64,000 nucleotides of DNA from Rickettsiales bacterium (GCA_044237845.1 JBIIEL010000001.1:86173-150172), one strand, 5' to 3'. Positions 33,855-52,956 are shown, counted from the first letter of the stretch. Program-made: numbers and translations. Notes: generated by a model from the sequence alone, not told the origin.

Positions 33855-33875
33855 TGTGACAGTTTTGTGAAGATT
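33855..33875 (-). promoter_or_regulatory. TCAC direct-repeat operator, site 1
   Basis: Sense strand reads AATCTTCACAAAACTGTCACA, then 21 nt, then TATAAA (33833..33828, within GCTATAAA). Confidence 0.6.
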
Positions 33876-33884
33876 TTAGGGGGA

Positions 33885-34253
33885 TTATTTGCAGGTTACG
33901 ACGCCAGTCACGAGGGGGTCGCTGTAGGTTTCGCCGGGCATGAACAGGCCGTGACCGATATACCGATCACGAATGATGGTGGCTGCCTCTCGTTTGGCTG
34001 TCTGGCTGGCAACGCCGGCGGTGCATAATTCGCTGGCACGGCGGATAAAATATCCCTCCAGAAGCTCCGGCGGCGTATCCCGATTGCCGCGCACCTGTAG
34101 CTCATAGGTGCCGGGTGTGGCGCTGGCGCGCTCCACATAGCCATAGGCTTTGTCCGCCCCTGCCGCCTGATAGGGCGTCGGATCCAACTTCCTGCGTTCA
34201 CACGCGCTAAGCGTGAGCAGAAGGCAGAGCGCGGTCAACAGATGTTTTGCCAT
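33885..34253 (-). CDS. lipoprotein, hypothetical
   Basis: This is the 3' part of ORF 33885..34682, starting at ATG 34253. MAKHLLTALCLLLTLSAC lipobox. Its start overlaps the upstream stop (TAATG). Confidence 0.55.
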   Translation of the reverse strand: MAKHLLTALCLLLTLSACERRKLDPTPYQAAGADKAYGYVERASATPGTYELQVRGNRDTPPELLEGYFIRRASELCTAGVASQTAKREAATIIRDRYIGHGLFMPGETYSDPLVTGVVTCK

Positions 34254-34864
34254 TAGTTTGCTCTTGGGATGCAGAGAAGCGGTGCTGGGACAGGCACCGG
34301 CGCAATCACTGTCGGTGTTGTTATGGCCGGTGCGGGCGCCAGAGGCTGTGCCGCAGCAGCAGGTGTGAGCGTGCTTGGTGCGGGTTCCAAAGGCTGCGTT
34401 ACGGCAGGTGCAGGCGCTGCAGCGGCACTGGTGCAGGCATAGTAATAGACCATTTGAATGGGCAGGTTTGCACAGTCGGCCATGGCAGAAGCAATCGCAT
34501 AACCAATCAGCCCGCCGCCATAAGCCATTTCGCTTTTCTCGGTCATCACATAGTCTGGCTCGCCGCGCTCGGCAAAGCCATTGGGTGCACAAAGCCGCTG
34601 TGCCTCGGTTGCTGCGAGGTTGCGCAGAAACTGTTTGCGAGTCTCCAGTTTTTCTTCGCCACCCGCAAGGCTGCCAACCCATGTCCGATTCGTGTTTGTT
34701 ACGTTGATATAGCGCTTGTTATCGGCTTCATCCCCCCTGTGGCCGGGAACCATTTCTAGCTGGTTACCTTCATAATTGCGCACCCAGCGCTGGCTGTTAT
34801 CTGCATGCGAGCAGGCCGCGAGCGAAAGGGTGAGCAGCAAAAGCGTCAGTTTGCGTAAAGTCAT
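34253..34864 (-). CDS. lipoprotein, hypothetical, with Pro/Ala-rich C-terminus
   Basis: MTLRKLTLLLLTLSLAAC lipobox. aaggaga upstream of the ATG. 203 aa. Confidence 0.6.
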   Translation of the reverse strand: MTLRKLTLLLLTLSLAACSHADNSQRWVRNYEGNQLEMVPGHRGDEADNKRYINVTNTNRTWVGSLAGGEEKLETRKQFLRNLAATEAQRLCAPNGFAERGEPDYVMTEKSEMAYGGGLIGYAIASAMADCANLPIQMVYYYACTSAAAAPAPAVTQPLEPAPSTLTPAAAAQPLAPAPAITTPTVIAPVPVPAPLLCIPRAN

Positions 34865-34915
34865 CGGTATCTCCTTCTTAATCGGTAGAGGGATAGCATG
34901 TTTTTTTGAAAGAAT

Positions 34916-34936
34916 TATGACAGTTTTGTGAAGATT
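34916..34936 (-). promoter_or_regulatory. TCAC direct-repeat operator, site 2
   Basis: Sense strand reads AATCTTCACAAAACTGTCATA, then 20 nt, then TATCCC (within GCTATCCC). Confidence 0.55.
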
Positions 34937-34978
34937 TTGGGGGCTGCGCCCCCCCGGGCTGGTTTTTTAGCGCCCACC

Positions 34979-50688: not shown

Positions 50689-52466
50689 TCTTCGTACGTC
50701 GTCGACTGCTTAGCTTTGAGCGACATCTCGAGCTGGATCTCGGGCACTTTGTTGCTCACTTTATCCGACCGCTGCAGCGATGCCGAGCGGCAGTAGTAAA
50801 GCGACTTCACGCCCTTCTTCCACGCCATGTAATGCAGCATATGCAGGTCGCGCTTGTGAATGTTCGCCGGCAGGAAGAGGTTGATCGAGCTCGCCTGACA
50901 GATGAACGGCGCACGGTCGCCCGAATGCTCGATCACCCAGCGCTGATCCATTTCATACGCGGTTTTGAACACCAGCTTCTCGTTTTCGTCGAGGAAGTCG
51001 AGATGCTGCACCGAGCCTTCAAGCGTGGTGATGGACGACCAGACTTCCGGCGTGTCCTGACCCTTCTCAGCCAGCAGTGCTTTCAGATATTTGTTGCGCA
51101 CGGGGAAAGAACCCGAGAGGGTTTTTTGCGTGAAGACGTTCGCCGCATAGGGCTCAATTCCCGGGCTCGCATTGCCGGTGATGATGGAGATCGAAGCCGT
51201 CGGCGCAATCGCCATTTTGTTGGAGAAACGCTCCATTGCTCCGGCTTCTGCTGCATCCGGACAAGCGCCGCGCTCATGGGCGAGTTTCACCGATGCCGCG
51301 TCCGCTTGCTCACGAATATGGGCGAACATTTTCTTGTTCCAGACCTTCGCCATGACCGATTCAAACGGGATCATTTTCGATTGCAGGTAGGAGTGGAAAC
51401 CCATCACGCCGAGGCCGACGGAACGCTCGCGCATCGCGGAATATTTCGCGCGCTCCATGCTATCCGGCGCGGTGTCGATGAAATCTTGCAGCACGTTGTC
51501 GAGGAAGCGCATGATGTCTTCGATCAGCGTCGGGTGGTTCTTCCACTCGTCGTAATATTCGAGGTTGAGCGAGGACAGGCAGCACACCGCGGTGCGGCTT
51601 TTGCCGAGATGGTCGTAGCCCGTTGGCAGCGTGATCTCGGAGCAGAGATTGCTCATTTTCACGGTGAGGCCGAGCTGCTTGTGATGCTCCGGAATCGCCT
51701 TGTTCACGGTGTCGATGAAGAGGATATAGGGCTCGCCGGTTTCGATGCGGGTGGTGAGCAGCTTCGCCCACAGGTCGCGCGCGCTGACCGTCTCAACCAC
51801 ATGCTTGTCTTTCGGGCTGAGCAGATTCCATTTCTCGTTTTTCTCGACTGCTTGCATGAACGCATCCGTCACCGCCACGCCGTGGTGGAGGTTGAGCGCT
51901 TTGCGGTTGGTGTCACCACCGGTCGGGCGGCGCATGTCGATGAATTCTTCGATCTCGGGGTGCGAGATATCGAGGTAGCAGGCGGATGACCCACGACGCA
52001 GCGAGCCTTGCGAAATCGCGAGTGTCAACGAATCCTGCACGCGGATGAAGGGGATCACGCCCGAGGTTTTGCCGTTGCGGCCGACTTTTTCGCCCAGCGC
52101 ACGCAGGTTGCCCCAGTAGGAACCGATTCCGCCGCCGCGCGACGCGAGCCAGACGTTCTCGTTCCAGAGATCGACAATTCCTTGCAGCGAATCTTCGGTT
52201 TCGTTGAGGAAGCAGGAGATCGGCAAGCCGCGCTTGGTGCCGCCGTTGGATAGAATCGGCGTGGCGGGCATGAACCACATCTGGCTGATATATTCGTAGA
52301 TGCGCTTGGCGTGCGCTTCGTCGTCGCCATAAAAACTCGCAACGCGGGCGAACAGATCCTGGTATTTTTCCTCTGGCAGGAGATAGCGGTCGTCGAGCGT
52401 CGCCTTTCCGAAATCGGTGAGGTATTTATCGCGGCTGTAGTCGACGGTAATGGGTCTGGTCGTCAT
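50670..52466 (-). CDS. nrdA: ribonucleoside-diphosphate reductase alpha subunit (short form)
   Basis: 598 aa. PATPILSNGGT, catalytic NLCSEI, C-terminal redox pair YEECLACQ. Confidence 0.9.
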   Translation of the reverse strand: MTTRPITVDYSRDKYLTDFGKATLDDRYLLPEEKYQDLFARVASFYGDDEAHAKRIYEYISQMWFMPATPILSNGGTKRGLPISCFLNETEDSLQGIVDLWNENVWLASRGGGIGSYWGNLRALGEKVGRNGKTSGVIPFIRVQDSLTLAISQGSLRRGSSACYLDISHPEIEEFIDMRRPTGGDTNRKALNLHHGVAVTDAFMQAVEKNEKWNLLSPKDKHVVETVSARDLWAKLLTTRIETGEPYILFIDTVNKAIPEHHKQLGLTVKMSNLCSEITLPTGYDHLGKSRTAVCCLSSLNLEYYDEWKNHPTLIEDIMRFLDNVLQDFIDTAPDSMERAKYSAMRERSVGLGVMGFHSYLQSKMIPFESVMAKVWNKKMFAHIREQADAASVKLAHERGACPDAAEAGAMERFSNKMAIAPTASISIITGNASPGIEPYAANVFTQKTLSGSFPVRNKYLKALLAEKGQDTPEVWSSITTLEGSVQHLDFLDENEKLVFKTAYEMDQRWVIEHSGDRAPFICQASSINLFLPANIHKRDLHMLHYMAWKKGVKSLYYCRSASLQRSDKVSNKVPEIQLEMSLKAKQSTTYEECLACQ

Positions 52467-52547
52467 GTCTCACACCTTAAAACGTTTTTTGTTTCCTCAG
52501 CCCGATTATGCAATGCTTCTTCAGTTTCGCATCAGGTTCGATCGATT

Positions 52548-52562
52548 ACTACATCTTGTGGT
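52548..52562. promoter_or_regulatory. NrdR-box-like palindrome, proximal
   Basis: ACTACATCTTGTGGT is the exact reverse complement of 52702..52716. In the 16-nt frame CCACAAGATGTAGTAG, 11 of 16 positions fit acaCwAtATaTwGtgt, including the conserved C, A, AT, T and G positions. Confidence 0.45.
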
Positions 52563-52701
52563 CTAACTGTCTAGAGAGAAAATTTTTTAACAGGTGAAAT
52601 TTTTTCGTTGATTATTATTTTATATTTGTTTTTCAGCCTTTTAATTTTCTTGTTCAAGGTGGTATTTCGGCACTAGTGCTTCAAAACCGCGTTTTTTAGC
52701 A

Positions 52702-52716
52702 ACCACAAGATGTAGT
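52702..52716. promoter_or_regulatory. NrdR-box-like palindrome, distal
   Basis: ACCACAAGATGTAGT. Lies 139 bp from the proximal copy, with a very AT-rich stretch between them. Confidence 0.4.
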
Positions 52717-52935
52717 AGGTAAAAATACATCAGTGCGGCATTTTTTTACCACGCCGGGTTAACCCCATGACGCAGCGGGAGGAACAACCTAGCGACCTGC
52801 CGCGTGGGGTCAATCGGGAAATCTCAGGGGATAATAACCTTTGAAACAGGATTAAAATCCAGCGGCTTGTAGTGATTATTCTATTCTCCACACGCCATGC
52901 ACAGACTTATCCACCCCCGCCACCGCGCACCCCGC

Positions 52936-52956
52936 AATTGTCATGGAATTGTCACA
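52936..52956 (+). promoter_or_regulatory. TCAC direct-repeat operator, site 5
   Basis: AATTGTCATGGAATTGTCACA, then 21 nt, then TAATAT at 52978..52983. The ATG at 52990 is 7 nt after the -10, so the mRNA may be leaderless. Confidence 0.55.

Follow-up and report, generated by a model that had tools for sequence, protein, structure and literature searches.

Winged-helix response regulators of the OmpR/PhoB family and their direct-repeat operators provide the closest described counterparts of the element considered here, a 21-bp sequence found five times in a 64-kb stretch of DNA from a Rickettsiales bacterium (GCA_044237845.1, JBIIEL010000001.1:86173-150172). This stretch, hereafter the window, lies on a JGI contig of 90,581 bp; its source is an uncultured alphaproteobacterium with a G+C content of 58-60%. 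Three known systems serve as references. The cre-tag recognized by CreB in Enterobacteria reads TTCAC-N6-TTCAC, and the PmrA element reads cTTAATatT-N2-cTTAATatT. In the Pho promoters of E. coli, the proximal repeat ends 10 nt from the -10 hexamer, and both phoBR and pst are autoregulated. In a Pho box, a 4-bp A/T-rich spacer lies between 7-bp direct repeats of the CTGTCAT type, two in number; an equivalent definition counts two 11-bp units that each contain a TGTCA tract (PMC4415409, PMC4447250). The PmrA regulon of Legionella pneumophila and Coxiella burnetii comprises about 40 scattered, unrelated, lineage-specific genes (PMC6989116). An initial annotation of the window proposed that the five elements are direct-repeat operators of the OmpR/PhoB type that mark a co-regulated set of lineage-specific genes, a proposal now supported by the architecture of the element across a clade.

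Five operators and a clade-wide promoter class

The degenerate pattern AATYKTCAYNNAANYKTCAYA matches exactly five places in the 64-kb window, which are the five 21-bp elements reported initially, and it matches nowhere in 100 dinucleotide-preserving shuffles. A consensus scan allowing at most three mismatches retrieves sites 1-3 only, and a relaxed half-site scan yields 15 matches where 9.7 are expected, the perfect ones being the five sites and no others. Neither scan places the element before a housekeeping gene of the window, as the initial annotation had noted. All five sites fit the form TCTTCAC/TTGTCAY - 4 nt - CTGTCAY/GCTTCAC and thereby agree with the repeat definition of the Pho box; sites 1-4 have CTTCA in place of TGTCA in one repeat, and site 5 has TGTCA in both.

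Site 1 (33855-33875, minus strand; AATCTTCACAAAACTGTCACA) matches the pattern exactly, with the repeats TCTTCAC and CTGTCAC on either side of the spacer AAAA, and also fits a strict 19-mer present at least 26 times in the genome CAZGXX01 (GCA_964530085.1). Its -10 hexamer TATAAA (33828-33833, minus strand) lies 21 nt past the element and is preceded by the TGC of an extended -10; its offset is that of the T, A and T peaks at +40, +41 and +45 of a 66-site profile described below. Site 2 (34916-34936, minus strand; AATCTTCACAAAACTGTCATA) bears a weak third repeat in phase, CTTTCAA (overlapping match at 34906-34922), and its -10-like hexamer TATCCC (34890-34895, minus strand), again with TGC before it, follows at a spacing of 20 nt. 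Site 3 (47849-47869, plus strand; AATCTTCACGAAACTGTCACA) precedes TATAGA (47891-47896, plus strand) by 21 nt, likewise with TGC. About 30 bp are common to sites 1-3, including the TGCTAT that matches an extended -10. At site 4 (46760-46780, minus strand; AATTGTCACAAAAGCTTCACA) the order of the two repeat types is swapped and TAGAGT (46733-46738, minus strand) stands at 21 nt; the same 21-mer recurs as two identical copies in a CAZGXX01 locus (L042) with its -10 spacing unchanged. Site 5 (52936-52956, plus strand; AATTGTCATGGAATTGTCACA) is followed at 21 nt by TAATAT (52978-52983, plus strand) and, 6 nt further, by an ATG; its counterpart in CAZGXX01, AATTGTCATGCAATTGTCACA, has the same -10 and ATG. 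The fixed distance of 20-21 nt to a -10-like hexamer, part of the initial description, can be read at all five sites.

The element is a promoter class spread through a clade. When one genome per species was scanned with TCTTCACNAAACTGTCAYA, at least 98 stretches matched. Among the matches listed, about 38 sit singly across unrelated bacteria and archaea, which is close to chance level given our own estimate of about 35 chance hits for a 35-bit pattern in 596 Gb. The remaining 60 or so of the matches listed fall in about 25 alphaproteobacterial metagenome-assembled genomes (MAGs): CAZGXX01 holds at least 26 exact copies and JANNSK01 at least 10, and the rest belong to MAGs labelled Azospirillaceae, Rickettsiales or Alphaproteobacteria. 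CAZGXX01, whose listed contigs sum to about 2.1 Mb, is a congener of the window organism: the Prs proteins of the two share a 90% cluster, synteny extends over 21 kb and one intergenic region is 91% identical. No publication on this motif class turned up in the literature.

A profile of 66 sites gives access to the positions that the search pattern leaves free. AA at -2/-1 is conserved (58 and 63 of the 66 sites), and C/T recurs at +22/+23, exactly 11 bp past the CT of the second repeat and thus at the start of a third. Further downstream, T, A and T mark a hexamer that begins 21 nt past the element, with T/G at -15 and G at -14 (G in 41 of 66). Outside about -3 to +23 and the -10, conservation drops to background.

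The genomic context of these sites is equally constrained. Fifty-eight sites could be evaluated in MAGs grouped, partly by eye, as the clade; an open reading frame (ORF) starts 25-150 nt downstream in the sense direction at 56 of them, compared with 29 of 58 in the antisense direction and 62% of random positions. TAnnnT occurs at +20 to +22 in 41 of the 58, against 2.7% of random positions and 5 of 37 sites in unrelated genomes, and only 15 of the 58 lie inside a long open frame, where 89% of random positions do. Most of the sites also show the TG of an extended -10. Because the clade grouping was partly visual, the spacing count was redone on CAZGXX01 alone, a set defined by the genome: among its 26 or more sites, 20 of 26 have a hexamer at +20/+21, and 17 of those carry the extended -10 G at -14. 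A relaxed pattern applied to the same loci adds 23 sites with matching spacing, including the two exact copies of the site 4 variant. Architecture, orientation, spacing and spread across the clade are shown. The initial annotation had stated that genome-wide copies devoid of intergenic, orientation or spacing bias would contradict it; in the related genomes the bias is strong.

The position of start codons provides another view of the same promoters. Besides site 5, 14 further profiled promoters (L010, L037, L040, L045, L063, L064 and others) have an ATG 6-9 nt past the -10, and judging from these distances their mRNAs are probably leaderless, as is probably that of the 372-aa gene behind site 5, which starts 6 nt past its -10. 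Such a fit with leaderless mRNAs supports the assignment of the -10 independently.

Sequences abutting the boxes also deserve mention. A C-run, often the 3′ arm of a GGGGG...CCCCC hairpin, adjoins many of them on the upstream side (34937-34975 and 33876-33890 in the window; also L018, L023, L037 and L059), and profile positions -8 to -4 are C-rich. This run or hairpin may be a terminator or insulator and keep the promoter separate from the gene that precedes it.

A motif at a fixed distance from a -10-like element could in principle be what an alternative sigma factor recognizes on the -35 side; one such factor would be the RpoH-like sigma encoded in the window at 60759-61676 and conserved in CAZGXX01. 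Several features make this very improbable. TGTCACA lies 21 nt from the -10, further than the spacers of sigma70-family promoters allow; the conserved part is a tandem repeat of 11-bp period over at least 21 bp, not a single hexamer; the -10 is of the housekeeping type, TGnTAnnnT; and the motif is unlike the sigma32 consensus. An orphan histidine kinase, which in its window copy has a dCache_1 domain, adjoins the RpoH-like sigma gene both in the window (59020-60762) and in the congener (L180, 15417-17159), with no adjacent response regulator.

It is also conceivable that the direct repeat is a repressor operator, at which a winged-helix protein would silence promoters that are constitutive by themselves, since proteins of the PhoB family do repress at some promoters (PMC4447250). 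The site, however, is upstream of the -35 position and overlaps neither the -10 nor the start point, and the combination of an extended -10 with no recognisable -35 is typical of activator-dependent promoters, which leaves repression with hardly any credit. The element is, with high confidence, the operator of a winged-helix activator.

PhoB and the question of the regulator

The sequence of the element is that of a canonical Pho box. The identical 19-mer stands before a phoB gene in Rheinheimera (L090) and before a gene of a Comamonadaceae MAG (L051) that was taken, on visual inspection, for polyphosphate kinase, and lies 2 kb from pstSCAB in L009. Within the clade, a PhoB gene is located directly upstream of a box-driven orphan in L041. 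Its ortholog on the window's own 90,581-bp contig, P0106, is 81% identical to the L041 protein and scores 326 bits against the TIGR02154 PhoB equivalog, the cut-off of which is 296, while it falls below the cut-off of every other NCBIfam model, including CreB (201 bits, cut-off 273) and PmrA (145, cut-off 330). The best match of its DNA-binding domain is E. coli PhoB (3T72, 1GXP; E about 1e-27), the next family following at 3e-19, and its recognition helix, RTVDVHVRRLRKAL, differs from that of E. coli PhoB, RTVDVHIRRLRKAL, by one Ile-to-Val change. The clade thus possesses a PhoB ortholog whose DNA-reading helix is conserved. On this evidence the regulator of the five promoters is more probably PhoB itself than not; that it binds and activates them, and does so in response to phosphate limitation, is what we infer.

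The 19-mer was also seen in Rhizobium/Pararhizobium (L002, L013, L019, L025, L028, L030 and L083), where a third repeat, CTGTCAA, precedes it and the conserved surroundings run on into the palindrome TTGCACGCAATTGCAAAATTGTGCA and a LacI-like gene; two copies are on plasmids. This region is probably a Pho-regulated locus.

The initial annotation placed a dedicated two-component regulator first and PhoB second. Its choice of the OmpR/PhoB family stands; the ranking does not, in view of a textbook Pho box and a PhoB equivalog on the same contig. A dedicated regulator would be a PhoB paralog or another winged-helix protein of the family that runs these promoters and leaves to PhoB a small classical regulon. 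The regulon is indeed atypical, about 88% of the downstream proteins having no Pfam match and none being a Pho protein; its geometry is one helical turn off that of pstS-type promoters; the phoB and phoR-pstB promoters are without a box; and the half-site TTCAC resembles the CreB cre-tag. Against this, neither the window nor roughly 460 kb of clade loci nor the loci fetched by gene (L180, L182, L183 and L188; about 86 kb) contained a second PhoB-like gene, and tBLASTn for further PhoB-like genes returned only the L041 PhoB and receiver-only matches. The motif, moreover, cannot be told from the Pho boxes preceding true Pho genes elsewhere, the PhoB ortholog retains the E. coli recognition helix and P0106 lies under the CreB and PmrA cut-offs. 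Weighed together, these points make a dedicated regulator unlikely, though it is the one serious competitor of PhoB. Eighty metagenome PhoB loci come mostly from unrelated bacteria, and the closest (L100, PhoB 87% identical) has no box within 20 kb.

Several observations weigh against PhoB as the regulator. The E. coli geometry is not reproduced: 22 nt lie between the end of the strong repeats and the -10, and the proximal position is occupied by a weak 'CT' repeat. Relative to E. coli the box is displaced upstream by one helical turn; the pstS-type promoters of L009 and L105, read by eye, show the E. coli-like distance of 10 nt. No box occurs in the phoB promoter of the window organism (read in the Logan copy L182) or in the phoR-pstB promoter of L183. 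A search with the L094 PstS retrieved only other lineages and no pstS of the window genome or of CAZGXX01, and no canonical Pho-regulon protein was recognized among 48 downstream proteins scanned against Pfam. A second PhoB-like regulator is possible, as the loci examined, about 460 kb in total, cover only some 10-15% of any single clade genome.

The organization of the Pho genes themselves departs from the classical one. In the window organism, phoB stands alone between ispA and cca behind a sigma70-like promoter. A single unit, phoR-pstB-PAS_5, occurs without adjoining pstS, pstC, pstA or phoU in L183 (8558-11225; GCA_017302575.1) and in L043 (6362-7988), and may represent a Pho signalling module of an unusual kind. 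The PstB of L043, used as a query, gave no match attributable to the window genome or to CAZGXX01. In L094, a box-driven gene for a 190-aa membrane protein is followed, about 100 nt on, by a pstS-like gene with its own TTGACA-N17-CATACT promoter. A PstS-like gene in the 'Rickettsiales bacterium' MAG L188, the membership of which in the clade could not be shown, has no box; a PAS_5 gene precedes this pstS-like gene.

With PhoB as the regulator, the mechanism would be the following. The five elements would be operators of one class of activator-dependent sigma70 promoters. The two strong repeats phased at 11 bp (YTGTCAY or TCTTCAC, with an A-rich 4-bp spacer) span about -52 to -35, the -10 is of the extended type TGnTAnnnT and a -35 hexamer is absent. 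Phosphorylated PhoB, or a very close paralog, would bind the two strong repeats head-to-tail as a dimer, and a further protomer might be drawn onto the weak third repeat, of which 'CT' alone is conserved. Bound PhoB would then recruit the housekeeping holoenzyme to these extended -10 promoters. The resulting regulon would consist of several dozen scattered, mostly unrelated lineage-specific genes, encoding small lipoproteins, hydrophobic-hairpin proteins and HExxH proteins, and would not be made up of genes for phosphate scavenging.

Products of the promoters and their turnover

Eight genes follow the five sites in the window, and none of their products belongs to a Pfam, PHROGs or PADLOC family, in accordance with the absence of known function first reported for them. 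Site 1 precedes the gene of a 177-aa orphan (33272-33805, minus strand), after which comes the gene of a 229-aa DUF882/M15 peptidase (Peptidase_M15_2; 32561-33250, minus strand) that may be co-transcribed with it. Site 2 precedes a two-gene unit (33885-34864, minus strand) for a 203-aa (34253-34864) and a 122-aa (33885-34253) lipoprotein, both with lipobox signal peptides. Three genes form the unit of site 4 (43562-46701, minus strand): the first (46063-46701) encodes a 212-aa protein whose two internal hydrophobic segments form a hairpin, the second (44003-46063) the 686-aa HExxH...E protein and the third (43562-43993) a product of 143 aa. Site 3 is followed by a 386-aa orphan gene (47927-49087, plus strand) and site 5 by a 372-aa HExxHxxG orphan gene (52990-54108, plus strand).

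Two of these proteins could be traced further. For the 372-aa protein, CAZGXX01 has the ortholog P0031, with 91% identity and nearly invariant residues 41-300; the structure of the 372-aa protein, predicted from a 2-sequence alignment, has a mean pLDDT of 46 and the model is unusable. The family of the 686-aa protein is small: 1.84 billion representatives include 74 homologs, and H398, E399, H402, Y511, E520 and R524 are invariant. The ortholog conservation of the former and the invariant residues of the latter indicate that the window genes are real. HExxH...E is the signature of gluzincin-type zinc peptidases, and DUF5700, a 'putative zinc dependent peptidase', is matched weakly by 3 of 47 aligned members of the 686-aa family; from these motifs, the HExxH proteins of these promoters are probably zinc peptidases. 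The AlphaFold model of the 686-aa protein (pLDDT 85, pTM 0.80) has no significant Foldseek match in the PDB, the top one being anthrax lethal factor (E = 0.12, TM = 0.16), and at the sequence level a profile search of the PDB brought up nothing but TAL repeats, without significance. Residues 200-235 or so (GVTPLQVREAGLKGGIDGIGQLLGL) resemble a single TAL-effector repeat, this profile match being non-significant (E = 0.12).

The products of related promoters present a similar picture. Among 48 downstream proteins from related MAGs, about 88% have no Pfam match and about six have any, namely two SLT domains, a DUF84 NTPase and an HTH protein, besides single weak matches to dCache_1, Transglycosylas and nSTAND1. 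Of 65 products, about 75% are soluble, without signal peptide or hydrophobic segment, by a crude measure of hydropathy; 13 of the 65 have internal hydrophobic segments, and lipoboxes occur in two, both from the window. No genes of specialised secretion systems were found in the sequence examined. These figures speak neither for nor against translocation of the products, whose effector-like or exported nature, as envisaged in the initial annotation, is unproven.

Almost no paralogy emerges from an all-against-all BLAST of the downstream proteins, so that the likeness of the promoters is not a by-product of gene duplication. The pairing of box with gene persists in several cases and turns over in others. 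The site 5 box is kept in CAZGXX01. An orphan of L043 has its box in L183 as well, altered only in the spacer and by one C-to-T change in a repeat. Where the 686-aa protein has homologs with 44-49% identity, in genomes with a G+C content of 63-65%, each of these has a box of its own at 20-21 nt from TATAGT or TACACT. Site 3 and the 386-aa gene, in turn, form an indel of about 1.27 kb relative to CAZGXX01 and are missing there at the syntenic position; between congeners, promoter and gene seem to come and go as one. The 39 nt that include site 3 (47837-47875) are 97% identical to a CAZGXX01 promoter (L034; CAZGXX010000001.1) with unrelated genes downstream. The L034 box is flanked by perfect 9-nt inverted repeats, GGGCGACCC and GGGTCGCCC.

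This joint gain or loss, together with the near-identity of sites 1-3 over about 30 bp, the 39 nt in common with the promoter of an unrelated gene and the GC-rich hairpins or C-runs that often abut the box, would suit a dispersed repeat or portable promoter cassette that is served by no dedicated regulator and owes its likeness to common descent. Such an origin is nonetheless most unlikely. Conservation stops at the limits of the box and the -10, terminal repeats are absent and the downstream proteins are not paralogs. In variant sites the spacers and the repeat order differ, but the half-site cores and the 11-bp phase are retained, and orientation and spacing to the genes are nearly invariant, 56 of 58 sites lying in sense before an ORF. 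The architecture fits an operator read by an activator, for which PhoB is our preferred candidate.

Further observations concern the surroundings of the clade loci and of the five units. In L012 (4527-7922; JANNSK010000042.1), a box-driven 239-aa orphan has ntrY on one side and, on the other, a 156-aa remnant in which portions of ntrY recur, roughly the last 60 codons among them; the orphan may owe its place to an insertion that duplicated the target gene, or the assembly may be wrong. Large proteins with a prepilin-type N-terminal methylation motif (N_methyl) are encoded near clade loci (L180, 698-2407; L041, 3166-4068; L012, 65-1207). The many prepilin-type genes and an RTX-like protein suggested a Micavibrio-like predator, an idea that was dropped, as nothing tested supports it. 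Outside the five units, the window has an ordinary alphaproteobacterial housekeeping content (bc1 complex, MurJ, MutL, PurH, NAD-glutamate dehydrogenase, YchF, Pth, Prs and ribonucleotide reductase), and Rfam and tRNA scans of the window gave no matches. The leader of the ribonucleotide reductase large-subunit gene (52467-52900 in the window; 9478-9900 in L180) is long and highly conserved between congeners and matched nothing in an Rfam scan; it contains the palindromic boxes ACTACATCTTGTGGT / CCACAAGATGTAGT, which we take to be NrdR sites from their appearance.

Biological meaning and comparison with known regulons

The window organism seems to belong with a UBA3002 genome, as its promoter class is the same, the PhoB proteins are 81% identical and its relatives bear mixed 'Rickettsiales', 'Rhodospirillales' and 'Alphaproteobacteria' labels. 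That genome (L183; GCA_017302575.1), classified as o__UBA998; f__UBA3002, is 98.9% complete with 1.86 Mb (PMC8103865), in a single contig; it carries the motif and comes from an enhanced-phosphorus-removal bioreactor. UBA3002, UBA998 and SXRF01 have been placed as a basal, free-living or epibiotic 'ancient stage' of Rickettsiales, and for one motif-bearing family at the base of the order the cells are reported to be planktonic or on diatoms (preprint 10.1101/2023.01.31.526412).

In this setting a bolder, speculative scenario can be formulated. A phoB gene alone and without a box and a phoR-pstB unit without pstSCA and phoU in one genome raise the thought that PhoR-PhoB has been uncoupled from phosphate transport and now acts as the master switch of a fast-evolving secreted, membrane or effector-like programme directed at eukaryotic or bacterial partners. 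We regard this as doubtful, but if it were true, the box would be a ready tag for listing the partner-contact programme in any genome of the clade. More generally, if the promoters do form a regulon, one short DNA tag would pick out co-regulated lineage-specific proteins in unculturable bacteria, several dozen genes per 2 Mb or so, and the system would be a clear case of a conserved nutrient regulator gaining a large accessory regulon with fast turnover. A regulon of orphan lipoproteins, hairpin membrane proteins and a putative zinc-peptidase family would also constitute a candidate list for the origin of host or partner association in Rickettsiales.

The Pho box and PhoB regulon, also described in Sinorhizobium, come closest to this system. 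The type of repeat, the spacer, the 11-bp period and the absence of a -35 are the same, a PhoB equivalog with a near-identical helix is present, and the 19-mer is identical to boxes before phoB and a by-eye ppk elsewhere. The differences are that the strong repeats lie 22 nt and not 10 nt from the -10, that the targets seen here are almost all lineage-specific orphans and that the sites, with at least 26 exact 19-mers in CAZGXX01, are numerous given a genome size of about 2 Mb.

The PmrA regulon has in common with these promoters a winged-helix response regulator, a tandem repeat at a fixed distance from the -10 and scattered lineage-specific targets. The repeats here are instead TGTCAC/CTTCAC, P0106 is below the PmrA cut-off, the organisms are alphaproteobacteria and neither a type IV secretion system nor a translocation signal is shown for them. 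The parallel with PmrA drawn at the outset consequently holds as an analogy and does not extend to the consensus, which is unmatched, or to the protein. With the cre-tag of CreB, the element has in common TTCAC-like pentamers in direct repeat with an 11-bp period, the upstream repeat of sites 1-3 even reading TTCAC, but the second repeat here is TGTCAC, P0106 falls below the CreB cut-off and no creC-like context was found. What is familiar, then, is the operator and its probable regulator; what sets this system apart is the displacement of the box and the predominance of orphan genes in its large regulon.

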